Shown here: positions 1,378-63,323 of the stretch, piece by piece
Layout of the letters: each line of letters starts with the position of its first letter
Position numbering within the stretch: position 1 is the stretch's first letter
IMG/VR virus record: IMGVR_UViG_3300005288_000001
Location: 108,502 to 172,501 of that record
DNA length: 64,000 nt
Reading direction: 5' to 3' (one strand)
Source of the DNA: a virus
Notes under the pieces: generated by a model
Seen by the model: only the letters and a program-made list of their open reading frames with translations
What the model was told of the DNA's origin: nothing
Database searches by the model: none
Translations under genes and position numbers: made by a program

Positions 1378-2328
1378 TTATCCCATGAAGAACGATAGTG
1401 GCGCCGACTTGGTTAGCAGGTCAGTTTCGAGAGCCTTGATATCCAACATAGCTTCTTGGAAGATGGTGTTGCCGTCAACCTTGATACCACCTGGAAGAGT
1501 CATACCACTATACTTCTTCAGGTTAATTCCCCACTGGCGCTTGATTAGGGCAGTTGTATATTGGCGAACCCAAGGTTCAGTCCAAACCTTGCTGAAGGCT
1601 TGAGGATCGATAGCACGGTATCCTTCAACGACAATAACCTGTCCGGTTGAGAGCTTCCCGCGCCAGTTCACATCAAGACGCAGCTGTCCCATCATACGGT
1701 TGAACTCGAAATCTGGAGCTGCATTCAACGTGAAGTTGAGCAAGTCCAGATGGCTCATGGCCATTGTGTAGTATGTAAGGTCCGTAGACGTCAGATTGCG
1801 GATATCATTCAGCATCAATTGGTATTGGACGTCAAAGATATATGCACTAGAACTTGTAGGTTGGGTGAAAGGAATAACACGAGTCACACCGAAAACCGCG
1901 TCTGGAATACGAATCCAGTGGTTTTCTGTATCGCCGGCAGTATAGAAAATTCCAGAGCTGAGAGTTGCTACGTTGCCAGCAGCATCAGTAATGTTTTCGC
2001 CTGCCAGGAATTCACCTACAACGTTACGGATATTGAGAACTGTTGGATCAATAGATGGTTGTGTCTTAGCCTTGGCGCCCGATGTGGTTCCAACAATATC
2101 AATCTCGTTAGGGAAGGCAGTTGCATTATTCGTCGTAATGTTCAGCTGCGAGCAGGTAATCTTGTGCTGCAGATAAATCTTCTCGGCACCTTCATAGTGG
2201 TAGAGGTTGAAATACGACAGGGCTTCGTCGATACGATCCTGCAGTTGTTCTTCGGCAACGTTGATTTCAACCACGGGTGCGCCAAGAGCGCGAAGGCAAT
2301 ACTGCTTTAGATGTTCTCTTGTCGACAT
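1378..2328 (-). CDS. gp13: Neck protein
   Basis: LKQYCLRALGAPVVEINV..Q..DRIDEAL and YTTALIKRQWGINLKKYSGMTLPGG motifs. Confidence 0.95.
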   Translation of the reverse strand: MSTREHLKQYCLRALGAPVVEINVAEEQLQDRIDEALSYFNLYHYEGAEKIYLQHKITCSQLNITTNNATAFPNEIDIVGTTSGAKAKTQPSIDPTVLNIRNVVGEFLAGENITDAAGNVATLSSGIFYTAGDTENHWIRIPDAVFGVTRVIPFTQPTSSSAYIFDVQYQLMLNDIRNLTSTDLTYYTMAMSHLDLLNFTLNAAPDFEFNRMMGQLRLDVNWRGKLSTGQVIVVEGYRAIDPQAFSKVWTEPWVRQYTTALIKRQWGINLKKYSGMTLPGGIKVDGNTIFQEAMLDIKALETDLLTKSAPLSFFMG

Positions 2329-3899
2329 TACTTCACCACAATTCTTTTAATTTTATCCTTCAAGGTCACAAACGATTTCGAGACCTTGTCCATAACAACG
2401 TTCTTAGATTCAGGGATAGCACCCGGAATATTAGCAACAGATTTGTTCATTTGTTCCGATACAGTATTGGTATTCTTACGCAAGACGACACGAACATTGT
2501 AACGCTTAGTGATCCGTTGAACGAACGAGAGGACGTTGGTTATCACGTTCGCATCTAGCGCCACATAGAAGAGGCGGCTGAGTCTACTATTTAGGGTCTT
2601 CGTCGCCTTAAAGACTTTTGATACGAGTCTACTCTTGGTTGCAGTAGCATGGATCGAAGTCATGAATACTTTCGCGCGCAACGAATTACGCACGGCGGTA
2701 ATCAGTGTAGACTTAGAAATCAGCACCCCAACCATACGAATCATCTTCGGTGACAGACCAAGGTTTGCCTTGAGTGACTTGAAGAATCCCTTTGTAACTA
2801 AAGTATTAGCTAGGAGGCTTTTTGAAATGGTTTTGCCAACACGACGAATCAAGATAACGTTGGTGGCCACGGCCTTAGTAATCTTCTTACCAATCAGACG
2901 TGACATCAGATTAGAAACCTGAAGGGTCTTGCTGATTCGTTTGAAGACTAGACGTTGACGAAGCGCAAAGGCGTTCACAGTTGTAGTGTGGAACGATAGC
3001 AGCTTACGCGAAAGAGCGGACGTTTCGTTGACAACGAGGCTTCCGGACAAGACAAGAAGCATACGACGAAGTGGCGTTGCAGTTCCCGTAGCGACCAGGC
3101 TCTTGTTGATGATATGGAATACTCTACGGATACGCGTCGTCACAGCCGTGAGACTAACAGATCGAATCTTGTAGATTCGACGAAGCATACTCGATGACGA
3201 TGAGACATTCGCCATAAGCATCATCGCCTTCAGGCTTGCGTACGAGTATGAGGCAAAGGTTGTAAGACCAGCACTTAGAGACTTGGTCAGTGTACGAAAC
3301 GCGGTGCCCACCAACGAATTAGATGTGGTATGATTGCTTCCGACACGACGGATACGAGTGGCCGAAACCAATTTGACCACGTTGATGATCTGAGTCGTTG
3401 AGCGAATACGGGTTGCGTTGATTAGCTTGGCTACGCTTAGATTCTTAGTGAGATTGCGAATTTGAGTTGCGCTAATAACTTTCGCGACGCTACGAATCTT
3501 ATACACTGCGCGAGCGCGTGTAGCAGTTGCCAGCTTGGATGTGCTGAAATTCTTACCAATCACCGGAGTACGAGTGGCCGATATTACCTTGCTCAGACTG
3601 ATAATCTGTGTCGTAGAACGAATTCGTGAAGGTGTTATCACCTTCGATAGATTGAAAATCTGGGTGACCGAACGATTACGTGTTGCGGTGATTGCCTTCG
3701 TTGCTGTTTCAATCTTCGATACACTATTGAGACGAGACTTGAGTGTTGTAAGAGATGCCAGGAAACTCTTCAAGATGGAACGTGAACGGCTAGCAGCCAC
3801 AGAACTGCTAGCGGTCAGAGTCATCGTGGTTGAGTTTGATCCTGCCGCGCGCAACTCCGCGGATATAGGCTGCGCACCGAGAATCAATCTTCCGTACAT
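2328..3899 (-). CDS. Very basic S/T/V/K/R-rich repeat protein, probably structural
   Basis: 523 aa with about 8 acidic residues and 18-aa repeats; coupled to gp13 by a TAATG overlap. Confidence 0.7.
   Translation of the reverse strand: MYGRLILGAQPISAELRAAGSNSTTMTLTASSSVAASRSRSILKSFLASLTTLKSRLNSVSKIETATKAITATRNRSVTQIFNLSKVITPSRIRSTTQIISLSKVISATRTPVIGKNFSTSKLATATRARAVYKIRSVAKVISATQIRNLTKNLSVAKLINATRIRSTTQIINVVKLVSATRIRRVGSNHTTSNSLVGTAFRTLTKSLSAGLTTFASYSYASLKAMMLMANVSSSSSMLRRIYKIRSVSLTAVTTRIRRVFHIINKSLVATGTATPLRRMLLVLSGSLVVNETSALSRKLLSFHTTTVNAFALRQRLVFKRISKTLQVSNLMSRLIGKKITKAVATNVILIRRVGKTISKSLLANTLVTKGFFKSLKANLGLSPKMIRMVGVLISKSTLITAVRNSLRAKVFMTSIHATATKSRLVSKVFKATKTLNSRLSRLFYVALDANVITNVLSFVQRITKRYNVRVVLRKNTNTVSEQMNKSVANIPGAIPESKNVVMDKVSKSFVTLKDKIKRIVVK
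3325..3700 (-). repeat. About 7 degenerate 18-aa (54-bp) coding repeats
   Basis: SKVITPSRIRSTTQIISL / SKVISATRTPVIGKNFST / AKVISATQIRNLTKNLSV / AKLINATRIRSTTQIINV; boundaries approximate. Confidence 0.8.
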
Positions 3900-8960: not shown

Positions 8961-10160
8961 TTATGCTCTTAATCCTTGGACATTGCCTTCATTAACCAGT
9001 GCTCCATATGGGCCAGAATATAGATAGTAGCCTGGCGCACCACCGTAATATCCACTACCGCCTGGCGAACCGCCTGAGCCACCACCATTGTTTCCGTTAC
9101 CGCCTGTTGCACCTGTGTCGCCTGTTGCACCTTGTTGTCCATAGGCACCCCAACCACCACCTGATCCACCGACACCACCAGTACCACCTGTGCCTCCGGT
9201 CCCAGCATTAATACCACCGCCGGCTCCACCGCCACCGCCGGTTCGACCAGCATTTGTTGCACCAGTTTGTGCATGGTCCCAACCTTGGCCAAAACCACCA
9301 TCGCCGCCAGTACCACCACCACCACCTCCACCACCACTGGTGTAGACGTTGCTATCCCATTGACGATAGATTTCGTATAGGTTATAGAATCCGAATAGTG
9401 GGTCCGACCCAACGTAGCCAGTCAATCCACCACGGTAGTAGCGGAAGATACCATCGTTTACTTGGTTAACACCGTCGCCTGCAGTTGAGAACGCATTTTG
9501 ATATGGCCATCCAGCTTGGTGCCATTTCCACCAGGTCGCACCAGTTCCCGAATAGCGATAAACACCGTGTGTTGATGCTTCCGAAGACGGACCTTCTTGG
9601 TTGGTGACAACGTAGTATCCTGGACCACCTTGTCCACCGCTGCCTCCGAAACCACCCTTACCACCTCCGCCGCCACCAGAGAAAATCTGCCCGCTAGACT
9701 TATTGTAAACTACAGTCCAGCAGCTTGAGTTCCAGCAATGGATACACCAACCACCTTGAACACCGTTTCCACCCGTTGAACCTTGACCGATTGGTCCGTA
9801 TGATCCTAGGATGTTTCCGTAGTTGATAATGATCATGGTGGAACCTTGAGGGAAAGTTCCTACAGTAATAGCTGAGTTTCCCAGAGTTCCACCAATTTGT
9901 CCTTCGTTGATAACCTTGTAGGTCGTGACAGTCGTAGGATTGAATGTTGGTTGGAGATATAGATTCTGCAGGTTGCCGACGTTATACAATACTCCGCGCG
10001 CAGCACTCATTCGAGCAGGCTGCGACAGATAGTTCGTACCGTTATAGTCCACAGCCATAGCACGACGAACGCGTGAATTGCTGAAGCTGACTGGACCAGA
10101 AAGACCCAGTTCAGCGGCAATCTGACTTAAGGAGATAGGGCCAGTGTGAGGTGTAGGCAT
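8961..10160 (-). CDS. Glycine-rich fibre-tip adhesin (T2/T6 gp38-like architecture)
   Basis: N-terminal GPISLSQIAAELG; poly-Gly runs flanking an aromatic-rich variable segment; directly downstream of an S74-bearing fibre. Confidence 0.7.
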   Translation of the reverse strand: MPTPHTGPISLSQIAAELGLSGPVSFSNSRVRRAMAVDYNGTNYLSQPARMSAARGVLYNVGNLQNLYLQPTFNPTTVTTYKVINEGQIGGTLGNSAITVGTFPQGSTMIIINYGNILGSYGPIGQGSTGGNGVQGGWCIHCWNSSCWTVVYNKSSGQIFSGGGGGGKGGFGGSGGQGGPGYYVVTNQEGPSSEASTHGVYRYSGTGATWWKWHQAGWPYQNAFSTAGDGVNQVNDGIFRYYRGGLTGYVGSDPLFGFYNLYEIYRQWDSNVYTSGGGGGGGGTGGDGGFGQGWDHAQTGATNAGRTGGGGGAGGGINAGTGGTGGTGGVGGSGGGWGAYGQQGATGDTGATGGNGNNGGGSGGSPGGSGYYGGAPGYYLYSGPYGALVNEGNVQGLRA

Positions 10161-14400: not shown

Positions 14401-17400
14401 CAATAGCTGCGGTCCAACGACCAACAACAGCAAGTGCTACCGAAGTTAGTTGGCTGTTCGTCAGAACTGGCTGACCAGTCCATTGAGTTTGCCAGCCGTT
14501 CCAAACGGTTCCTAGTACACCTTGCGTCGCAAGAGTAGAAGTCAGTTGGCTGTAGTTACCTTCAACGCTCTGTACGATGTCTGGAAGACGATTAACTTCA
14601 AACCAGTCGTCGGACGCTGGATTGATGGATACGTCACCGAGGAACGTAAAGACCGCGAATGGGTTAACGTTTTCGGTACGAGTTCCGTAAGGTTGATCAA
14701 CCAATACGACGTGAGGTGTAGCTGGGTCCAGTGGAAGCGTGATAACGTCGCCGTAGAGCTTGTAGTTCGATGCCAGACGTTCTGGTTCAGAAACGGCTTG
14801 TTCCAGCATGTTCACGTTATGCATCACGAAGTATGGACGAAGCTCACCTGCCAGTGGGTCGGTCGAAGCAACGTAATCTGGTGAGTTAGAATCACCGATG
14901 CCGTTACCCTTGAACGAGTCAACAATGAAACCGTTCTTGTAGCGTTCCAGACCAGCAGAGTCGCGGATCGACAGGCTAGCTGTTTCTTGTTCCAACAGGC
15001 TCAGGCTGGTGTAGTATTCCAGGTTGCTGATACGTTGTTCCAGCTTTCCGATATCGCGCATTGTGTAACGCTTGTTATCGGTCTTAGAAATCAGAACGTT
15101 TTCGCTACCTGAACCAAAGGTGTATGGCTGGTAAGTCAAACCATACAGAAGCATGCTGTTAGCATCCAGCGGAGGCTGCTTAGGCGAGATCGAAGATTCA
15201 CCTTCAGTAATGTAGAAACGACCAGCCGAATCCATCGCCAGCAAGTCCTTGCGCGACAGATAGTATTGGACGTCAGCAGTAATGTTAACACCACGCTTAA
15301 CTGGCAGAGTACCAGCGATGGTCACACCGTCATCCGAACGTGGACGGAAGTCCAGAGCGTCGCGCAGTTCGATGTCGTTGAACTTAGGAATCAACTTGTA
15401 GTCGATAGCCGCGTACGAATTCTTTGAGAAGAAGTGGCCGGTGCCATGCGTGAAGTATTGGAACGTTACGCGGATTGGGTTGGTTGGCGGAGCGTAAGAA
15501 CCCTTCAGCTTCAGGTATGCTGGACCATAGTATGATTCAGTTTGGCCTGTGAAGAACTCATAACGATCTGTAATGTCAGTGGTAGATGCCCATGTTGGAG
15601 CGCCACCGAAGGCGACAGACGTATCCATTTCAACGCGCGAGAGCTTGTATCCGTCAGCCTTGTCCAGAGTCAAGATCGAAGCAGCGGCAGCAGCAGTTGA
15701 GAAGATCGTGCTTTGACCAGTCAGGGTCTTAACCTTTTCGGTAACACCCAGAGTTCCCGTGTATTGGACGTCAGCCAAACATTGGATCGTGGTGCTTGCT
15801 GGAGCGCCAGTAATAATGACTTGATTCCCAACGATATTCGTCGAAGTTGGAATGAAGGTAGTGTTGTTCGCGGTGAACGTGTAGTTCGTTAGACCAGCGC
15901 CTGAACCCAGAGTTCCACCACCGGTGTACGTGAACGTAGCACCACCGCCACCTGTTGAGACGACGTTGGTAAGCGGTTCGTAGACCGAGTAGTTAACGTC
16001 AGCAAGTGACGAAACTGCGTAGTATGGCAGAGGATAAATGGCGTCAACGGCCAGAGGTTCGACGATACGAGTTGTGATCAGACCGTATGCTTGACCAGTT
16101 TGAGTTGCTGGAGCAGCTGTCAGAGTAGCAGAAGTCTGCGATGCAATGGACGCAATTTGCAGATTGACAGTTGTGCCAGGCAGATAAACGATGTCGCCAG
16201 GAATCAGATCGGTCAGGAAGCTGGTACCAACACCAGTCATAGCTGTACCAGAAGTGCTGATCGAACCAACCAATGCCTTAACGTTTCCAGAAATATTTGC
16301 GGTGAAGTTGTTGGTTGAAGTTCCGATAGACTTAACTTGACGATCGAAGTTATAACCAGTGTTCATCTTCACGTCGAAGAGGAACAGTTTTTGGAAACCA
16401 GTCGAATTATATTCGATACCACGAACGCGAGCAGTACCAACAATGTTTGCCGTTGGTTGCGTGCCTGGAGTTACGACGAAAGCATCGTACAGATTTACCA
16501 GACCAAAGGTGGTTGGAATGCTCGAAGCATAGGTAATGTAAACGAAGTTACCAACGTTGGTTGTAACTACAGCATTGTTAACTGCTGGATCGTTGATGTC
16601 GCGCGACTTAGGAGTCGATACGTATTCGGTAGCAATCTTCTCGATTTCATAACCTTGGACGTATGCCTTACCAGGTTCCAGACCGATAGCCAGCTTGGCT
16701 TCGTTGGCTTGGTGGGCTGCCAGAGTGGTTTCACTAACCTTTGGTGTGAAGATACCACGGTTGTAAACTGGGTTCGGAGTGTATTCCCAAACCATCAAGC
16801 TGTCAGTTACCAGTGTACCAACCAGGGTTGCGTCAGGAGCAACGTTGGAAACACCTTGTGTAATACAAGTGAACAGCTTTCCATTGGAAGTAACAATGTC
16901 ACCTGCCAGGTATGGAGTAGCAGTGGCCCATGCGCCACGGTCGTTGTTGCGGTATTCGCGAACGTCGATCTCAAAGTCACGTACAGTGTAGCTTCCCGAT
17001 TCGTCGAAAGTGCGACGAGCCAGAGTCTTTTCTAGATCAGAGTATTCAGTTGTACGTGTGTCACGAAGAACAATACCAGTGTCAACAACCGACAGAGTAA
17101 CAAAGTTGCTGTCCTCTACGCTGTCCAGGGCACGCTTTTCCAGAACCAATTCGATGAAGTGGCGGTGCGCACCAGGTGCTGCGTAGTTGTACGAGCCTTG
17201 CGCGTTGTCCAGGAGTTTTTCGTCTTGTTCAGGAGTGACGATAGATTCGTTAACCGAAAGACCAATACGATACGAAGGTGTTACACCGAACTTATCAAGA
17301 ATGATGGTTTGCTTTTCGACCAGAACGAATTGACCATTGATGAAGTAGACACCTTGTTCAACTCCAGCAAACGAACCAGCACCAGTTGCATCAACAGCAG

Positions 17401-17885: not shown

Positions 17886-20546
17886 TTAGAACTTAAAGAC
17901 AGTGCTAATTGTAATTTTCTCGGATGTGTCGTCCATTGGAGTGAACGGAATTTGATTGTCTTGATAGAGCAAATCACCAGAGTATTTATCAAGAGTAGGA
18001 GCAGTAATAGTGGCAGCTGAGAATGAATCTCCGCCATAATTGAAAACATCTCCTACAACTGGAATCGCATTGTCCATAGATTGCAATACGATAGAATTCG
18101 TAGCACTATGAATAACACGATAACGAACCGAGAAGTTAAAGCGCAGAGTAGCACCGTTCACAACACCAGCAATTGGCGATGATACAGTGATCGTCTGAAC
18201 AGTAATATCAGTAATCACAGTTCCCAGGACAGCTCCAGGAGCAGCCACAGGCATACCAACAGACAAACCAGCTACCGAAGACAAAGTAAATTGTGTACCG
18301 GAGATAGCATTGGTAACCGTTGGGTTAATAGAGTTAGTTAGCGGAATGACAGTGACAACTGTATCAGCAACAAAGCTCGCAGGAACCGTAGTGGTCGGTG
18401 AAGCCGTCCAGCAAGCACTTAGCGTTGAAGCTGTGGCGAAGACTGGGGCACCAAATCCATATGGATTCTTGATCAGACCGAATTGACGGTAATCAGCTTC
18501 AAGCGAAATACCATTGACCAAGTCCTTAGATACACCCGAATGGAACATCAATGTGCGCGTGAACAGGCTTCGAACAGCGTTCTTACTGTGGCCACCATAA
18601 GGTCCGATGATCGCACGAGCCGAAGCACCTGTACCACCGCCACCTGTAATTACAATTTCAACCTTCTTGTATCCTGAACCTGGAATGGTCACATTGATTC
18701 CACTAACACGACCAGCGGAGATTGTTGCCACAGCCGAAGCTCCGGTGCCATCACCACGAATCGATACAGTTGGAATAGTCGTGTAACCATAACCACCGGA
18801 AACTACTGGGATGGTATAGATAGCTCCGTCTACCGAAGTCAATTCTGTATTGGATTGAAGAGTAGAAACGTCGCCAAAAAGCAAGTCTACTTCCAGAACC
18901 GCACCAGTACCTGTTCCAGTAACTGTGATATCTGCTTCGTTGTATCCGACGCCTGATTCAACGATAATCGTTCCGGTAATTCCACCGCTTTGGATGATAG
19001 GAAAGATACGAGCTTCAGACTTAGATGCAATGGAGTTCACAACTGCTGGAGTCGTGATAGTTCCTGTGCCAGTTACAGCGATAGTTGGAGCTGATTGGTA
19101 ACCTGCACCTGATTGTCCAAGAACAACACCAACCGCACCAGTACCACCTCCACCAAAGCTGGTGACGGTTGGAAGAGCGGTCAATTGGTTATAAGCGCGA
19201 TTGGTAATATCGACTCGGTAAATCTTACCGTTCTTGGCGTATGAAACACCAGTAACTGCAGGATTGCTGAAGGTCATCGTGTTAGGACCGTTGGAGTAAC
19301 CAGTACCACCAGCAGTAACTTCCACACCACGAACACCTTGGAGCAGCGTTGTGCTATTGATCGCACCGGCGGAAACCGTTGCAGTCGCTTCGGCAGTCAT
19401 ACCAACAAACTTATAGAAGACCGAACCCTGCGCAACCGAACCTGATTGGTGAGTTGGTGGAGTAGCAGTTGAGATACCACCAACGGTGATTTCGTAGAAG
19501 TTCTTCAGGTATGAAACGAACTGTCCAACAACGTAGCTTCGACCAGAAGCCCAAGCACTTGAGTTCTTTACTGGAGGACTGAACGTCAGAGTTGCTGCAG
19601 TGTAGCCTGCGCCAGCAGTGGCCACAGTTAGACCTGTAACGTAAAATGGGTTCTCCGGTAGATAACCGTCGCCAGATACAACCAGCTTTGTAGATTCGTC
19701 GTAGCCCGAACCCATCGAATCGATACGAATATTGCGGATTTCACCTGACGAATAGAACTGACTCTTCAGGGAAGTTGCAACCGGAATGTACTTCGATGTT
19801 AGGAACTTGGTACGCAGAGCGATAGGAATAGTCAGCAAGAATTTCCAGACATAGCCGTCGCTGGTCTTCAGCGGGCTGGCGGAAGTACCGTATGGTTGTT
19901 CCGTAGAGATTGCACCAGCGTTGTTATCGATACAGACGTAGACATTGAAGTCATCGGTCATCACGTAAAACTGTGAGTCTTCAAGACGAACAACGTTATT
20001 CTGAGCAACAGCTAGAACACCTGTTGCAGTTGCACCAATACCACCTCCGCCAGTGAACGAAATCGTCAATGGATTGGTAGTTGAGTTGGTGTAGCCGCTT
20101 CCGCCAGAGGTTACTGTAACGCTCGTAATACGACCGGTAGATGCAGAGATAGTTGCAGTAGCACGGGCGTCAGAACCAGTTCCGGTAATGTTTACGGCTG
20201 GCGCAGTAGTGTATCCCGAACCACCTGACAAGAGGTTGATGCCAACCAGGGCTGTAGAATATTGGTCGTCATAACGATCATAGATGTTATTGACCTTCCA
20301 GTCGATACGACGAATAACCAGGCTTGCGTCGTTACTCTGAATCTGCTTCGCGTAGATGATATCCGCACGAGTATCAAGTTCATTCTTGTAGCTATCCAGG
20401 ACAGCGAATGGCATGAAATCAATATCCCATGGCTGGGTGCGGCCAAGGAAGTAAAAGAAGCGACTTGTCTTGTTGTTGATTTCGTTCAGGATCGCATCCG
20501 CAACAGCACCCTTTAGATTTGTTTTGATCAGGACAGAGTTAGCCAT
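17886..20546 (-). CDS. gp8: Baseplate wedge protein with inserted GSGY repeat domains
   Basis: FFYFLGRTQPW, VIRRIDW, FYVMTDDFNVYVCIDN, DGYVWKFL, DYRQFGLIKNP. Start moved to the ATG at 20546, just after the upstream stop. Confidence 0.85.
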   Translation of the reverse strand: MANSVLIKTNLKGAVADAILNEINNKTSRFFYFLGRTQPWDIDFMPFAVLDSYKNELDTRADIIYAKQIQSNDASLVIRRIDWKVNNIYDRYDDQYSTALVGINLLSGGSGYTTAPAVNITGTGSDARATATISASTGRITSVTVTSGGSGYTNSTTNPLTISFTGGGGIGATATGVLAVAQNNVVRLEDSQFYVMTDDFNVYVCIDNNAGAISTEQPYGTSASPLKTSDGYVWKFLLTIPIALRTKFLTSKYIPVATSLKSQFYSSGEIRNIRIDSMGSGYDESTKLVVSGDGYLPENPFYVTGLTVATAGAGYTAATLTFSPPVKNSSAWASGRSYVVGQFVSYLKNFYEITVGGISTATPPTHQSGSVAQGSVFYKFVGMTAEATATVSAGAINSTTLLQGVRGVEVTAGGTGYSNGPNTMTFSNPAVTGVSYAKNGKIYRVDITNRAYNQLTALPTVTSFGGGGTGAVGVVLGQSGAGYQSAPTIAVTGTGTITTPAVVNSIASKSEARIFPIIQSGGITGTIIVESGVGYNEADITVTGTGTGAVLEVDLLFGDVSTLQSNTELTSVDGAIYTIPVVSGGYGYTTIPTVSIRGDGTGASAVATISAGRVSGINVTIPGSGYKKVEIVITGGGGTGASARAIIGPYGGHSKNAVRSLFTRTLMFHSGVSKDLVNGISLEADYRQFGLIKNPYGFGAPVFATASTLSACWTASPTTTVPASFVADTVVTVIPLTNSINPTVTNAISGTQFTLSSVAGLSVGMPVAAPGAVLGTVITDITVQTITVSSPIAGVVNGATLRFNFSVRYRVIHSATNSIVLQSMDNAIPVVGDVFNYGGDSFSAATITAPTLDKYSGDLLYQDNQIPFTPMDDTSEKITISTVFKF

Positions 20547-49578: not shown

Positions 49579-50420
49579 AGTTCTATTACTTTCAGTTTGA
49601 AGTTCTTTGCGGATTCCTCATGACCCTCATATCCGCGAGGGTTGCACACAACTCGTGTGTCGTGGACTTGGTAATCAAACTCGAAGTGAGTATGACCATG
49701 AGTCCATAGCTTAATGTTCCGATGTCGGTCCATGAGCAGTTCAAGGTCGCTGTGGTAAGCTCCGTTGGAATGCTTTTCGTGGGCAAACGAAGAATGCACG
49801 CTACGGAAGCTTGGCGAGTGGTGACCAATAACGATTGTTGGCTCGCCTAGATCAGCAGCCTTCCCAATGCTGATACGGGTCTGGATGTGTTCCTTGAGCG
49901 TATCAGCCGGCGTCAGCAGGTTCTTGGCACCATAGGTTCGATCATACGGATGAATGACTGGCGGGTAACGAGTATCCTCGATCACTCGATAGTCGTTCGT
50001 GTACGTCTTACAGATGGCCATCGTGACCGGGTCCTGGTAGTTGAAATCGGACCACAGCGTAGACCCGAAAACAACATACTCCCTAAAGTGGACATACTCT
50101 TTATCGAGCAGGATCACATTGTGGAAGTTATTCCGGGTGAGGAACTCACGAATCTGCTTCGCCGATTCAGGGAAGTCTCCATGATAATGCTCGTGGTTTC
50201 CCATGACGTACATTACCTGAGTAAACTCCGCCGACACATTAGCGAAGAATTCGGTGAACCTCTTACGAAGTTTACGTGACTCGGCATCGGTCTTGCGTTC
50301 AGGAAGAACCGTTGCCAACATGATGTCACCTGAAAGAATCAGGAGGTCAACGTCACCAGGATTCTTCAGTACAATTTGTGCAAACTCCAGATGGAGGTCC
50401 GATGCGAGTGCGATTTTCAT
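49575..50420 (-). CDS. Calcineurin-like metallophosphoesterase
   Basis: SDLHLE, GD, GNHE, HH.P, HGHTH, NPRGY. Confidence 0.92.
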   Translation of the reverse strand: MKIALASDLHLEFAQIVLKNPGDVDLLILSGDIMLATVLPERKTDAESRKLRKRFTEFFANVSAEFTQVMYVMGNHEHYHGDFPESAKQIREFLTRNNFHNVILLDKEYVHFREYVVFGSTLWSDFNYQDPVTMAICKTYTNDYRVIEDTRYPPVIHPYDRTYGAKNLLTPADTLKEHIQTRISIGKAADLGEPTIVIGHHSPSFRSVHSSFAHEKHSNGAYHSDLELLMDRHRNIKLWTHGHTHFEFDYQVHDTRVVCNPRGYEGHEESAKNFKLKVIEL

Positions 50421-50574
50421 TCAGGTTTCCGGTCGAGCGTTAGGATAATTGCAATGATCCATCCCAGCACATCCAATCGCGTAGGCGAAAAGAGACAGGT
50501 GACAGCATTGAAAATCAACGTTCCCATAACGATGTAATGGAACGTTGCGCCGTTGAAGAAGTCTTTGAGCTTGT

Positions 50575-50727
50575 TCACAGCAAGTACTTCGTGACGAGGA
50601 ATTCAGCCGTCAGGTACCAAGACCAGAGAGGGATGAAGATTGCGAAGAAGGTTGACCAAAATCCCTTAGCCAGGAAAATACCAATAATCCAAGCCGGGAA
50701 AGTAATCAACGCGACAATACCTTTCAT
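50575..50727 (-). CDS. 50-aa membrane protein (not in ORF track)
   Basis: MKGIVALITFPAWIIGIFLAKGFWSTFFAIFIPLWSWYL...; AAGGA RBS. Confidence 0.6.
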   Translation of the reverse strand: MKGIVALITFPAWIIGIFLAKGFWSTFFAIFIPLWSWYLTAEFLVTKYLL

Positions 50728-50973
50728 GTTTATCCTTTGTTAGTTTACTCCAAGCTCAATTATACGGCACGGTACTCCCTCGCGCTTAGAATGATTTGAA
50801 CTGCTCTTGGACTTTGATTGCGGGCGTTTGAAGGCCGGTTGGCCGCCGCTAAGGGGTTGGCCCGCCTAGCGGTTTTCAGGGGCTTGGCGGGGCTTGTAGG
50901 GGCCTTCATGCGGCTTCGCCGGGCCGGTTTTAGCGCCGCCCGGTGAAAACCTGATCAGGATGCTGAATGCGAG

Positions 50974-50993
50974 AAAGCCCCCGAAGGGGCGTT
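50974..50993 (-). terminator. Intrinsic terminator closing the secreted-protein cassette
   Basis: GCCCC-TTCG-GGGGC-TTT. Confidence 0.7.
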
Positions 50994-51009
50994 CCCGGAG
51001 CCGACCGAA

Positions 51010-51678
51010 TTACTTGGGCATGCGGCGGGCGATGTTGGGGTCGTTCAGATCAGCACCGATCCAACGGAGCTTCTCTTCGTCGCGCATACCAGCCAGCTTG
51101 TTTCGCTGATCGGCGGTGCCCGAGATTGCCTGGAGGTTCTGCAGGTCCTTGGCTTCCTGGACGGCCGTACGAACCGAAGGTGGCGCCGAACTGATCTGGG
51201 TCCGCGTTCCATCCGGGCAAGGACGCTTCAGCTTGTCCATTGCTTCCTTGCCCGCAGCCATTCCGCACAGCAGGGCAACGTACAACTCTTCGTCCTTCGA
51301 GAGGGCCGCGAAGTTCATCAGGTTCAGGGAAACGCAGTCCGAGAGGGACTTCGCACCGCCGATGGAAACGGCACCACCCATCGCTCCGACAGCGACGCCA
51401 CCGGTGGCACCGCAATTGAAGCTGCCGCTGGCGACGGCCATGCCCGGCAGGAATGCCTGGCCGACGGTCTTGACGCCACCGCTCTGGTGGACTTCGGTCT
51501 GTGTGACCGTTGGGTTCGCGGCTGTGCCACCCGTTCCGCCTGTGTAGACGTTGATGGGGGCGGTCTGGGCAATTGCCGATGCCTGACCGGTGCCTGTGGA
51601 ATTGGACTCGACTTGGGCGAACGCGCCGAAGGAAGCCGAAAGGGCGATGGCCAGCAGGCCAAGCTTGATTTTGTTCAC
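51010..51678 (-). CDS. Secreted protein with four Cys and a Gly-rich hairpin
   Basis: Sec signal MNKIKLGLLAIALSASFGAFA; FNCGATGGVAVGAMGGAVSIGGAKSLSDC..ALLC..PC. Confidence 0.8.
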   Translation of the reverse strand: MNKIKLGLLAIALSASFGAFAQVESNSTGTGQASAIAQTAPINVYTGGTGGTAANPTVTQTEVHQSGGVKTVGQAFLPGMAVASGSFNCGATGGVAVGAMGGAVSIGGAKSLSDCVSLNLMNFAALSKDEELYVALLCGMAAGKEAMDKLKRPCPDGTRTQISSAPPSVRTAVQEAKDLQNLQAISGTADQRNKLAGMRDEEKLRWIGADLNDPNIARRMPK

Positions 51679-51702
51679 GTATCTCTCCGGGAAGGATTGG
51701 AA

Positions 51703-51724
51703 GGCTCGGGCCGAAGCCCGAGCG
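51703..51724 (-). terminator. Intergenic stem-loop between the two secreted-protein genes
   Basis: GCTCGGGC-TTCG-GCCCGAGC, with only a short U-tail. Confidence 0.7.
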
Positions 51725-51746
51725 GTGTACTGAAGGCCGAGTTGGA

Positions 51747-52421
51747 TTACGGCGTGTTGGAGATGACCGCGCCCGACTTGGAAGTCGCCGAGGCATTCGC
51801 AGCCGCCTCGTTCACGACGTCAACCACACCCGAGCCCCAGGTGAACTGGGTCGTGGGAGTCGTGCCTGCCAGGGCAGCAGCCGAGGTCGTCGCGCTGGCC
51901 GTGTCGTTGAACACTCCGCCCTGGGCAGCGCTCGCCGTGGCCACGTAGCCACCCACAGCACCGACCTTCACGTACGCACCACCGTTGGTTCCGGTGCCAG
52001 CCGCCGTCGAGGAGATCGACTCGGCATTGCCCGTTGCGCTGCCCGAGATTCCGGTCGGACCGGCCATCGAGAAGCTCTTCGAGCCGTCGACCGAAGCGGT
52101 GGAGGTGCCGTTGGCACCCGCAGCGCCGGTTCCGGTGCCCGTGGAGTAGTTCAGGGCGAGCGACGTGGAGGTCGTCTGCACGCCACCGGCCACGTAGGCG
52201 GAGCCGGTGTGCGAACCGTACTGGCCACCTTGTTGGCTCGAATCGCTGATGCCGACGGCGGAAGCGGACTGGTTGTTGTAGGCGATGGAAGCCGAGAGGC
52301 CACCACCGGTGCCCGAATACGCCGTGGCGCCCGATGTGCTGTTGGTAGCGACCTGTGCCGAAGCGAGGCCGACGAATGCCAGAGCGGCGAGCAGCGATGC
52401 GAGCTTGAAAGTCTTCTTCAT
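51747..52421 (-). CDS. Secreted low-complexity A/G/S/T-rich protein
   Basis: Sec signal MKKTFKLASLLAALAFVGLASA; mature region has few charged residues and no Cys. Confidence 0.85.
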   Translation of the reverse strand: MKKTFKLASLLAALAFVGLASAQVATNSTSGATAYSGTGGGLSASIAYNNQSASAVGISDSSQQGGQYGSHTGSAYVAGGVQTTSTSLALNYSTGTGTGAAGANGTSTASVDGSKSFSMAGPTGISGSATGNAESISSTAAGTGTNGGAYVKVGAVGGYVATASAAQGGVFNDTASATTSAAALAGTTPTTQFTWGSGVVDVVNEAAANASATSKSGAVISNTP

Positions 52422-52536
52422 TACGAAACTCCTAGAATTACCACCCTAGAATTACGCTAGGTCGTTTTTCCACCACCCGATGGAATTACTTTAGTTGGTT
52501 AGGCTTTTAGTTACCCAAACCGCCTTTAGTAACGTA

Positions 52537-52565
52537 ATTTTAGCTACCTATCAAATAAATTAAAA
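52537..52565 (-). promoter_or_regulatory. Early-type promoter TTTTAA-N17-TAAAAT
   Basis: Matches the GGC-TTTWWT-N17-TATAAT family seen at 60-64 kb. Confidence 0.65.
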
Positions 52566-52603
52566 GCCCAATTTGAATTTTTTTCAAACGAGCTCTTATG
52601 GTG

Positions 52604-52628
52604 AAAAGGGCGCTTGAGGCGCCCTTAT
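52604..52628 (-). terminator. Intrinsic terminator
   Basis: AAGGGCGC-CTCAA-GCGCCCTTTT. Confidence 0.7.
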
Positions 52629-52901: not shown

Positions 52902-54131
52902 TTATTTCTTCGCAGTCGCGGCCGCACCTTGGATACCCAGGTCGACACCGAGTTGCTTCGCAGAACGAGCGGTCATCATGTCGATCAGAGCCGAGGCAGA
53001 GTTGCCACCAGCGTCACCCGACTTACCCATGACAACAGCCGGAGACCAGGCGCCAGGTTGAGCCTTCTGGATGGCTTCAGCGTACATCGCATTCACACGA
53101 ATCACAGCGTCCAACTTCTTGTCGAGCTGACCGTCGGCGTCCATCACGAGCTGCTTACGCTTCGCTTCACCTTCACCGCGCAGGATTTCGGCCTTCTTGA
53201 ACGCTTCAGCTTCCTTCACAGAAGCATCAGCAATCGTCACACGAGCCTGAGCATCAGCGATAGTCTTGGCGTTGAGCGTTTCCTGTTCCCACTTCGCCTT
53301 GGCAGCATTCGCCTGTCCCTGTGCCGTAGCGGTAAGAGCGTCCTGTTCTGCCTTCTTCACGTTGGCAGCACCGACGGCAACCTGATTCGTAGCTTGCTGT
53401 TGCTCACGAATCTGGGATTCAACGCGGTCTTCGTAGCGGAAGCCTGAGATCGTCAGCGGCAGCATTTGGACTGCATACTTCTGAACGTACGACTCCTGGG
53501 CGCGAACCGGAATGCCCTTTTCGTCCTTGACGATTTCGGTAAGAGTCAGGTCCTTCTCGACACCGTCGATTCCCTTGGTTTTGACCGTCTTGGCAAGCGT
53601 CTTGTACACGCCATGGAGGGTTTGGTCATTGACGATCTGAAGCAGCTCGTTACGACGGCCGGCAGCAGATTCGAACGAGGTCATCGTCGGACCCGAGAAC
53701 GTTGCGGCCAGTTCCATGGAACGACGGATTGCCTGCATTTCGAACGCTTCAGGGCTACGGAAGTCGCGGTGGATTTCGATGACCGATTTCGGGTCGGTTG
53801 GCATCATCCAGGAAATCGAACCGTTCAGAATAGCGTTGCCGCCGTCGTAGAAGCGGATGCCAAGACCCGGCGACTTTGCAGTTTCGTGGTCGTCCTTACC
53901 ACCAGTGACGAAGCGGAACTCGCTACGACGTGGATACTTCGTAACAGTGCCGAAGCCTTGCCACGACCAGCCAGGTTCGGTGACGACTCGCATCGAACCG
54001 CTGACGCTTTGGATCACCATCAACTCGCTCGAGTCGAGGTTTTCGAAGAGCATCGGCAGCGAGATCAGGGTGGCCACCGTGAGGACACCAGCAATGGCAA
54101 CACCTGCAATTTTACCGGGAGTGAGAATCAT
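52902..54131 (-). CDS. SPFH/band-7 family membrane protein
   Basis: N-terminal TM, VIQSVSG..PG..WQGFG, long A/E/K coiled coil. Confidence 0.8.
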   Translation of the reverse strand: MILTPGKIAGVAIAGVLTVATLISLPMLFENLDSSELMVIQSVSGSMRVVTEPGWSWQGFGTVTKYPRRSEFRFVTGGKDDHETAKSPGLGIRFYDGGNAILNGSISWMMPTDPKSVIEIHRDFRSPEAFEMQAIRRSMELAATFSGPTMTSFESAAGRRNELLQIVNDQTLHGVYKTLAKTVKTKGIDGVEKDLTLTEIVKDEKGIPVRAQESYVQKYAVQMLPLTISGFRYEDRVESQIREQQQATNQVAVGAANVKKAEQDALTATAQGQANAAKAKWEQETLNAKTIADAQARVTIADASVKEAEAFKKAEILRGEGEAKRKQLVMDADGQLDKKLDAVIRVNAMYAEAIQKAQPGAWSPAVVMGKSGDAGGNSASALIDMMTARSAKQLGVDLGIQGAAATAKK

Positions 54132-60159: not shown

Positions 60160-60532
60160 ATTTGTAAAAGCCCACGAGGGGCGAATTCTCCAGAAAAATT
60201 TTTAGAGGCTTCCCTCTATTAGAAGACCAACGAAATGACCCTTGGCGGGATACCAGGGGTCGCGAGAAATTTTTGAAACGAAAGACCTGAATACGTCCCG
60301 CCTAAAGGCCGGGCTCAAATCCGGAGCCTCGCCATACGAGTGTCATTTTGCGGAAAGTAAAGAACTTTCTCCCTATCGCCAAAAGTTGACGAAATCAGGC
60401 AAAGAGCGGAGGCACCAAGAGGAGCAGCCCACCAGCCACCACCAACAGTCCTCCCAGACGCAGCGACGTGAGTCCTGAGCAGGCCGCCAAGGCTCCGCCG
60501 AGGAAGACGAGCCATAGCCCTAGACCCATGAC

Positions 60533-60775
60533 TCAGCGCCCTTGGCGAGCCATTGCGGCAAGCTCTAGGTTAGTGTCTGCCTCCCAATGGTCGCCCCGTG
60601 CAGCATGCAGGCGAGCCATCTCTTCCCAGTGTGCGGCACGAGCCTCAGCACTCAGAGCGATTGCTTTGGTGAGGTGTTGGTTGACTCGCTTCGCGCGAGC
60701 CCTGTTTTGTTGATAGGTGATACCTATCGCGAGGGCCAAGCCCAGCAGTACAGCGATCATGTCAATTGCGTCCAT
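60533..60775 (-). CDS. Early small membrane-anchored protein
   Basis: Has its own promoter and RBS; N-terminal TM. Confidence 0.65.
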   Translation of the reverse strand: MDAIDMIAVLLGLALAIGITYQQNRARAKRVNQHLTKAIALSAEARAAHWEEMARLHAARGDHWEADTNLELAAMARQGR

Positions 60776-60787
60776 AGTTGCCTTTCA

Positions 60788-60840
60788 ATTATACGCGGAA
60801 CAGGGTGAAAAGTAAAGCCCCCTCACACCGAAGGGGCTTT
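60788..60840 (-). promoter_or_regulatory. Stem-loop plus early promoter TTTACT-N17-TATAAT
   Basis: An AAAGCCCC..GGGGCTTT hairpin whose 3' arm runs into the -35 box. Confidence 0.8.
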
Positions 60841-60846
60841 TGGCTT

Positions 60847-61158
60847 TTACTCCTGGTCGGGAGCGGCAGCAGCCGGGGCAACGATCAGCTCAGCGCCGCC
60901 GTCAGCCATCGGCTTCAGGATGAACACCGAGGGCTCGTCGCCCGGCAGGACCTTCAGCATGCCCGTCAGATCGGACTTGATGCAGGCGATCCCGAACTCG
61001 AAGCCAGGCGTCTGCACGCGGATGTTGCCACGGGTCGACCAGACGGCCTTGAGCAGCGTTGCGTTGGAATGGCCGGCCACTTGGGCGCGGGCGATGGCGA
61101 CGTCACCAGCGGTGAGCTTGACGGCGGCGACGGGGGTGGAAGCGATAGCGGTGGTCAT
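60847..61158 (-). CDS. Early hypothetical protein (GC-rich codons, strong RBS)
   Basis: AAGGAG RBS; several promoters upstream. Confidence 0.75.
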   Translation of the reverse strand: MTTAIASTPVAAVKLTAGDVAIARAQVAGHSNATLLKAVWSTRGNIRVQTPGFEFGIACIKSDLTGMLKVLPGDEPSVFILKPMADGGAELIVAPAAAAPDQE

Positions 61159-61227
61159 AGAAACTCCTTCATTTAACCAAACCCTTAGCCAGGGGAGCGG
61201 GCCGGTAAACGCTACCGGCTTAGGTCA

Positions 61228-62581: not shown

Positions 62582-62875
62582 TTACCAAAAGATATGTATC
62601 GCTATCGTGGCGAGGCCACCGACACCAGCAGCATACACTGCGCGCACGAACCACTTCACCACTGGGCTCGGCTCAGCAAAGGCAGCTGAGGGGTTCAATT
62701 CCATGAACCGAGCCACGTTAGCATGGTGCTCGGATTCACGTTCGTCAGCAGCACGACGCTTGTCTTCTTTGGACTGTCTCATAGAGTCTGCAGCACCCTG
62801 CGCCGCAGCAGCGCCCACCAGGGCACCAATCAGATGGTCCTTGTTGAGAGTGATGTTGGTGCAGGGGATATGCAT
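62582..62875 (-). CDS. Early membrane-anchored hypothetical protein
   Basis: AAGGAG RBS before MHIPCTN; C-terminal TM. Confidence 0.6.
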   Translation of the reverse strand: MHIPCTNITLNKDHLIGALVGAAAAQGAADSMRQSKEDKRRAADERESEHHANVARFMELNPSAAFAEPSPVVKWFVRAVYAAGVGGLATIAIHIFW

Positions 62876-62885
62876 GGTGAGCTCC

Positions 62886-63293
62886 TTATGCGAAACGCGA
62901 AACAATGTGGTGGGGATGACCGTCTTCGAATGCCTCGAGGGCCAGGTCACGTGAGGAATACTCGGTATCGTCGGACCAACGGGCCACAGTCAGGCGAAAC
63001 GGGCCATCGGCCGAATCGGACAGATCATCGCGCAGCGCATGGAACGCAGAAGGCGTCGCATCAATCACGTGACGAACGCCCGAGTATTCCACGCAGTCAC
63101 AGTCACGGCCGGACTCAAGCACCAGGACCTTGCCTTCGTGGGCATGCTTGGTCAGTATCTCGACCAGGCGACCACGAGCCGAGATACGCTCGTCAAGGTC
63201 TTCGAACAACCGAGCGGCAAGCTTGCCGCGTTGGCCATGATCACCATTCCTGAGGATCAGCTCACGGGCAACTTTGGAGGGGAAGAGGTTCAT
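62886..63293 (-). CDS. Early hypothetical protein (ESGRDCDC motif)
   Basis: AAGGAA RBS before MNLFPSK. Confidence 0.7.
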   Translation of the reverse strand: MNLFPSKVARELILRNGDHGQRGKLAARLFEDLDERISARGRLVEILTKHAHEGKVLVLESGRDCDCVEYSGVRHVIDATPSAFHALRDDLSDSADGPFRLTVARWSDDTEYSSRDLALEAFEDGHPHHIVSRFA

Positions 63294-63323
63294 AGCGGTA
63301 GTTCCTTTTAAGTCAGTAAGGCA

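Follow-up and report, generated by a model that had tools for sequence, protein, structure and literature searches.

The final 64 kb of the 172.5-kb phage genome IMGVR_UViG_3300005288_000001 from IMG/VR (hereafter the window, a stretch of 64,000 nucleotides) contains a 1.6-kb cassette of two minus-strand genes, referred to as A and B, with hairpin terminators on both sides. The genome possesses direct terminal repeats, and T4-type genes are present in relatives of the window region, namely those for a gp59-like protein, a late-transcription co-activator, DNA ligase, PhoH, ClpP, and endolysins; the phage is T4-like and presumably lytic. Its host was left unassigned, because even the nearest cultured relatives found for the flanking genes shared less than 41% identity with them. 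A preliminary description of the locus had portrayed the cassette as a self-contained unit for two secreted proteins, a candidate fibre subunit and its partner. Our analysis firmly established the cassette as a compositionally foreign, self-contained, and horizontally mobile module of two co-inherited genes, whose products bear signal peptides and are under purifying selection.

Gene A (51747-52421, minus strand) was delineated by its open reading frame (ORF), by homologue alignments, and by the ratio of nonsynonymous to synonymous substitution rates (dN/dS). It starts with ATG, 8 nt downstream of an AGGAG Shine-Dalgarno sequence, and encodes a 224-residue precursor predicted to be exported through the Sec pathway, leaving a mature protein of about 202 residues. 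In the signal peptide, an n-region rich in Lys precedes a hydrophobic core of 12 residues (mean Kyte-Doolittle hydropathy 2.35) and the cleavage site ASA|QV, and a site of the A-x-A type was kept in all A homologues in the alignment. Mature A is composed to 83% of A, G, S, T, N, Q, and V, contains only 9 charged residues, and has no Cys, in agreement with the composition first reported for it. The recurring turns described in the same place turned out to be compositional, since the best internal 18-residue self-match scored 31 against 35.8 +/- 3.6 in 200 shuffled sequences, 95% of which did equally well; no internal or tandem repeats were found in A by this comparison. AlphaFold2 (AF2), given ten sequences, predicted an all-beta protein whose strands, 12-24 residues in length, form long hairpins. 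The predicted local distance difference test score (pLDDT) was 70 in one of the five models and about 30 in the other four, and the ESM Atlas model of A had a pLDDT of 0.44. The strands are not amphipathic, as hydropathy differed little between alternate faces (maximum face mean 0.88), and several of them have one strongly conserved face of G, A, and S (for example residues 71-94, conservation fraction 0.89). Four members of the A family, P0048 (L016:1670-2539), P0051, P0052, and P0054, have a C-terminal Gly/Asn-rich extension that holds a conserved C-x5-6-C motif, e.g. GCTGNTGNCGNGNGNGGGNGTGNEG.

Gene B (51010-51678, minus strand) begins with GTG behind a GGAGAG Shine-Dalgarno sequence, and its 222-residue precursor was likewise predicted to be Sec-exported. 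Its signal peptide is built like that of A, with Lys-rich residues in front of a hydrophobic core of 12 residues (mean Kyte-Doolittle hydropathy 2.16), and ends in AFA|QV; the A-x-A-type cleavage site was kept in 19 of 19 aligned B homologues. Both proteins thus carry the type of signal peptide, ending in A-x-A|QV, that the preliminary description had read from the translations. The first 65 residues of mature B are of low complexity and predicted to be disordered. C-terminal to them lie a Gly-rich beta-hairpin, placed between C89 and C115, and a helical core containing C138 and C154 (AF2 residues 110-155, pLDDT 77-89). These four Cys are invariant across 19 homologues. The protein ends in a variable linker and a short conserved peptide of the [TN]DP[YF]I..R or PxPW[QE]AGG type. 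A fold search with the B model returned nothing above Z = 4.6, and B and its homologues gave no Gly-zipper match in Pfam and contained no lipobox (cleavage at A-x-A|Q, no Cys at +1). When the profile of A was aligned to that of B with hhalign, 32 columns were matched at a probability of 39%, all within the signal peptide region; judged from these profiles, the two proteins share no homology outside the signal peptide.

The base composition of the cassette set it apart from the rest of the phage. GC content was 0.665 in gene A and 0.625 in gene B, with 0.80 and 0.74 at third codon positions (GC3), compared to 0.492 for the whole genome and a GC3 of 0.46-0.64 in neighbouring genes. The GC richness noted earlier by eye was borne out, as the cassette ranked first in both size and strength among the GC islands of the 172.5-kb genome (peak 0.678, z = 5.2). 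The island spans approximately 50760 to 52425 and includes about 200 nt of non-coding DNA 3' of B (GC 0.59-0.66). The promoter and the 115-nt leader in front of gene A are AT-rich (0.39 GC), which is phage-like and not island-like, and for this reason foreign DNA appears to have been set behind a control region of phage type. The GC contrast between the cassette and its surroundings was also seen in the related contigs L003-L007 and in L014. Smaller patches with GC above 0.58 were located at 60400-61200 and 62600-63300 of the window and at 2001-3400 and 19001-19900 of the genome, and may represent additional acquired cargo.

We further investigated which other phages carry the two genes. Four related T4-like contigs (L003, L004/L005, L006, and L007) have the A-B pair at the same position, within the gene order Band-7/SPFH, small gene, A, B, non-coding tail, 50-aa membrane protein, and metallophosphoesterase. 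Identity among these contigs was 61-97% for A and 61-96% for B. Compared with the T4-like relatives, dN/dS was 0.07-0.43 for A and 0.08-0.31 for B, versus 0.03-0.18 for the neighbouring Band-7 gene; by this codon-level measure, A and B are under purifying selection, yet evolve faster than the Band-7 gene. Faster evolution is usual for proteins at the host interface.

An exhaustive profile search with B recovered only 23 clusters among 1.84 billion cluster representatives, and contigs were examined for seven of these 23 clusters. In L009, L010, L012, L014, and L016, the B homologue is immediately preceded by an A homologue of full length (37-49% identity), while L015 and the 1-kb contig L008 end within the gene upstream of B; the fragment left in L015 resembled the C-terminus of the A' subfamily. 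The adjacency of A-like and B-like genes in other phages, a test set beforehand, therefore held in T4-like and in unrelated contigs. Across ten loci the homologues aligned over their full length at 37-98% identity, and only A and B were common to these loci, with neighbours that differed from one to the next. Among the non-T4-like carriers, which have a GC content of 55-67%, the genes downstream of the pair were mutually unrelated. L009 is of lambdoid type and has NinB, NinG, RecT, and anti-defence-type genes; L010, also of lambdoid type, has ERF, Cro, and a lysis cassette of its own that includes a spanin-like gene, and its DNA faintly resembled that of phages of Xanthomonas, Pseudomonas, and Burkholderia; L015 carries an integrase. 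In the temperate carriers the pair lies in early accessory operons beside anti-defence genes, and not with lysis or structural genes. A distant pair was seen on the 188-kb AT-rich phage contig L017, where a 131-aa S/T/G-rich secreted protein is followed by a B-like protein with a Cys-clasped hairpin. Proteins of the A' group (P0048/P0053 type) pair with those of the B' group (P0013/P0018 type), and pairwise distances in A and B were strongly correlated (Mantel r = 0.90, p = 2e-4). Because the subfamilies match and the distances correlate, we concluded that the pair travelled as a unit. The carriers come from soil and peat samples, one of the relatives being from a Sphagnum peat metagenome (PMC9584203).

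Two further observations were made on these contigs. In L012, the A and B homologues are separated by an inserted gene of the HNH/AP2 homing-endonuclease type (9663-9989), which lies directly past the stem-loop that follows A. In L009, Acb2/Tad1-hairpin-like and Lar-like restriction-alleviation genes (14487-14741 and 16907-17290) lie in a rightward operon that starts with the A-B pair.

Searches of reference libraries placed neither protein in a described family. A, B, and their homologues had no match in Pfam, NCBIfam, PHROGs, or PADLOC, hmmscan against Pfam assigned no family to A or to six A homologues at cut-offs from E<=1 to E<=10, and neither A nor B matched PDB sequences even at E = 10. 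No match was obtained when A, B, and distant B homologues were compared by tblastn with 50,697 GenBank phages and 72,556 PLSDB plasmids, or when the GC island and 24 kb of the window were compared with phages by blastn. Pattern scans with the A and B profiles found no relatives in IMG/VR, and scans of GTDB genomes, in which each of 185,579 prokaryote species was represented by one genome, found neither relatives nor a chromosomal counterpart. A metagenome scan returned only the 1-kb contig that was already known.

The control elements of the cassette were examined by folding and by comparison with the relatives. The order proposed earlier was terminator, early-type promoter, gene A, hairpin, gene B, terminator. 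The hairpins of this scheme were confirmed. The promoter candidate TTTTAA-N17-TAAAAT (52537-52565, minus strand), a weak sigma-70-like element in AT-rich phage-type DNA, agreed with the consensus at only 8 of 12 positions, and the promoter scan made no call there, although four relatives retain its -10 box in the form TAAAAT or TATAGT. Upstream of it, the intrinsic terminator of the preceding gene marks the 5' boundary of the cassette (52604-52626, minus strand; stem AAGGGCGC / GCGCCCUU, then UUUU). This hairpin folded at -14.5 kcal/mol (z = -5.1), with 0 of 200 shuffles folding equally well, and its pairing was kept in the relatives by compensatory changes. Between promoter and gene A, a conserved 5' leader of about 115 nt (52422-52536, minus strand) holds three predicted hairpins and the AGGAG of gene A. 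Its column identity was 85-89% across five phages, the RNAalifold consensus yielded hairpins, and the single-sequence fold had an energy of -32.5 kcal/mol (z = -2.4). A CCUAG segment of the leader can pair alternatively with a nearby CUAGG or with CUAGGAG, which contains the Shine-Dalgarno sequence; this alternative pairing suggests translational control.

Between the two genes lies a stem-loop whose 8-bp stem is capped by a UUCG tetraloop and has no U-tract behind it (51704-51723, minus strand). A stem-loop 3' of A was present in 7 of 8 spacers that share no sequence, with L016 as a weak exception, and the analogous structures in L008, L009, L010, L012, L014, and L015 stand in non-homologous A-B spacers. 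The element is thus conserved as a feature and not as a sequence. It is probably an attenuator or an RNA-stabilising element that sets A above B, and its recurrence fits the ratio of a major to a minor subunit that had been proposed for the intergenic hairpin. Downstream of B, a terminator-like hairpin (50970-50998, minus strand; GCCCC-UUCG-GGGGC, then UUUCUC at 50971-50990) folded at -18.4 kcal/mol and was invariant in sequence in five phages. With terminator hairpins on both flanks and a foreign composition, the cassette is self-contained, as had been supposed.

The GC island continues past this hairpin as a conserved non-coding tail (50767-50969, minus strand). Identity of the tail to the relatives was 73-93%, above the 65-76% nucleotide identity of the A and B coding DNA, and in a hairpin at 50917-50945 GC-to-CG swaps preserved the pairs at alignment columns 74/94, 76/92, and 78/90. 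A 49-aa ORF in the tail (50760-50909) was rejected as a gene, its frame being broken in L006. Neither Rfam nor tRNA scans of the cassette produced anything close to a threshold, IMG/VR contained no match to a conserved 19-nt block of the tail, and the tail is single-copy in the phage genome. It could be a small RNA derived from the 3' untranslated region or a relic of the donor.

The neighbourhood of the cassette contains other genes for membrane proteins. An SPFH/Band-7 protein with an N-terminal transmembrane segment is encoded at 52902-54131 (minus strand), and its closest cultured relatives belong to crAss-like Bacteroides phages and Vibrio phages (31-40% identity). Two tiny transmembrane proteins are encoded at 50575-50727 and 50417-50578 (both minus strand), with a TATAAT promoter of their own. 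The region around the cassette may serve envelope remodelling in general.

Morons are independent transcription units of phages that often encode envelope proteins, and on composition and mobility the cassette falls within their definition (PMC3594210). Like morons of the lambda bor/lom type (PMC3594210), it is a unit of deviant composition that is bounded by terminators, has a weak candidate promoter, spreads horizontally, and encodes products predicted to be exported to the envelope; unlike them, it consists of two co-inherited genes of unmatched families and resides in a strictly T4-like genome. The cassette appears to have been acquired from a GC-rich donor and to have come under the control of an AT-rich promoter and leader that are typical of the phage itself. 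The signal peptides would then send A and B through Sec to the periplasm of a Gram-negative host, where A would be the abundant and B the minor product; an excess of A over B is expected because of the stem-loop 3' of A and the GTG start of B. In the periplasm, B would be oxidised to form two disulfides, one of which would clasp the Gly-rich hairpin, and its linker and conserved C-terminal peptide may tether it to a partner. A would be a small-residue, uncharged beta-sheet protein working together with B, and could form a bulk layer in the periplasm or at the outer membrane, with B as anchor or organiser. The pair would alter or shield the cell envelope during infection or lysogeny, and other phages might thereby be blocked from adsorption or DNA delivery.

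Periplasmic proteins with this kind of activity have precedents. Sp of phage T4 is a periplasmic protein that blocks phage entry. A periplasmic HXS effector can block phage DNA entry (PMC13128918). Like these and like T4 Imm, all of them encoded by a phage or a defence system, the A-B pair is predicted to be located in the envelope or periplasm, is presumably non-structural, and occurs in accessory or early regions; it has no sequence or fold similarity to T4 Imm, Sp, HXS, or other superinfection-exclusion proteins. Superinfection exclusion or an envelope barrier would be the most likely single role of the pair, though we put it at somewhat less than an even chance. Exclusion or shielding was judged the likeliest because both lytic and temperate phages keep the pair, because the pair sits among early accessory and anti-defence genes in temperate carriers, because it evolves fast, and because periplasmic blockers of phage entry are known in Sp and HXS.

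Several points weigh against this assignment. What speaks for exclusion is solely genomic context and analogy, and no homology to known exclusion, defence, or envelope proteins was detected in Pfam, NCBIfam, PHROGs, PADLOC, or the PDB. The pair was present in all five T4-like relatives, which do not demonstrate that it is dispensable. The promoter is a weak match to the consensus, and the fold of A is uncertain, given the low scores of four of its five models.

Other readings of the pair were weighed on the same evidence. The possibility that the ORFs of A and B are chance frames in GC-rich DNA, or decaying cargo without function, had to be considered, as many long ORFs occur on both strands of this DNA and neither protein has a database family. 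It was refuted by the dN/dS values, by the full-length homologues at ten loci, and by the invariance of the signal peptides and of the four Cys in B; the overlapping alternative ORFs, moreover, were not conserved, and we give this explanation practically no weight. Alternatively, A and B could be a secreted pair of effector type, either an inhibitor of a periplasmic enzyme of the host or a competitor (such as a lysozyme, a bacteriocin, or a type VI secretion system effector) or a bacteriocin-like toxin with its partner. Small periplasmic inhibitors and some Gly-rich bacteriocins generally combine a disulfide-clasped Gly-rich hairpin with a compact helical core, and the modelled structure of B would conform to this plan; the fast evolution of the pair also speaks for this reading. 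However, no sequence or fold match to inhibitor, bacteriocin, or immunity families was obtained, and A has no counterpart in such systems, which makes this proposal unlikely. Structural comparison of the A model pointed in a different direction. Its best matches were hairpin sheets of pore-forming proteins, namely C8/C9 (Z = 7.0, root-mean-square deviation 2.4 A over 112 residues), pleurotolysin (Z = 6.1), gasdermins (Z = 5.3-5.8), and perforin (Z = 5.4), and the Foldseek ranking agreed. A might accordingly be imagined to assemble edge to edge, like the hairpin sheets of MACPF proteins or gasdermins, into a large oligomeric beta-barrel that would form an outer-membrane pore or channel, with B as plug, pilot, or regulator. 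These scores, however, lie in the range below Z = 8 that the VIA tool itself states to be background, the Foldseek template-modelling scores for A were about 0.3, and the fold came from one model of five. Moreover, the face hydropathy of the strands never exceeded 0.9, and A has no C-terminal aromatic beta-signal; a pore therefore appears very improbable. Searches with the A model against the PDB (Foldseek and VIA-wide), BFVD, and the ESM Atlas found only a weak likeness to hairpin sheets or outer-membrane barrels. Two candidates from an ESM Atlas feature search for A, HfaD (score 0.80) and DUF6322 (score 0.88), were unconfirmed by Pfam scans and were set aside.

The preliminary description had compared the pair to curli (CsgA/CsgB) and Fap (FapC/FapB). 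In this model, A would be the main building block of a fibre that assembles itself outside the cell or in the periplasm, functional amyloid-like or silk-like with a cross-beta structure, and B would be its nucleator or anchor. Several features are shared with these systems, including Sec signal peptides, a low-complexity Cys-free major subunit that is rich in small and polar residues and here almost uncharged, and a gene layout that points to a major and a minor subunit. The long strands of the all-beta prediction are also in line with a fibre, the conserved G/A/S faces would suit tight sheet-on-sheet packing, and the low monomer confidence of AF2 and the ESM Atlas is compatible with folding only on assembly. 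The specific analogy nevertheless failed on each of the sequence-level features compared, namely family profile, repeats, a paralogous nucleator, and a linked export channel. Neither A nor six A homologues matched the curlin repeat of Pfam (Curlin_rpt) with hmmscan at E<=1 to E<=10, nor was there any other amyloid family match, and A lacks tandem repeats. Unlike CsgB with respect to CsgA, or FapB with respect to FapC, B is not a paralogue of A. No CsgG/E/F or FapF/A/D/E-type Pfam family was found among the called neighbours across the ten loci, so that no CsgG- or FapF-type channel, chaperone, or accessory gene travels with the pair. These differences lower the standing of a curli/Fap-type system, while self-assembly of A by itself may be entertained as a doubtful possibility. 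A fibre built from A and nucleated or anchored by B is likewise conceivable but rather unlikely. A bolder version would have the pair as the first virus-encoded secreted self-assembly system, in which A is a cross-beta or silk-like polymer in the periplasm or on the cell surface and B nucleates or anchors it through its Cys-clasped hairpin and C-terminal peptide; such a system would be unrelated to curli, Fap, and pili, and would be spreading among lytic and temperate phages of soil proteobacteria. This version we regard as slightly less probable again. Exclusion of other phages or shielding of the envelope by a mobile moron is the role that we tentatively prefer to these alternatives.

Together, our results describe an exported protein pair that has moved between T4-like lytic phages and several temperate-type phages. 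Phage morons for envelope proteins are already known as a kind of element; both protein families and their obligate pairing are new among the libraries searched. Recurrent accessory modules of this sort usually mark an envelope battleground, where rival phages are excluded, the cell is protected from envelope attack, or its surface is remodelled. Once its function is defined, the pair would constitute a new type of phage envelope effector, and, should A truly self-assemble, the first secreted polymer system to be encoded by a phage.

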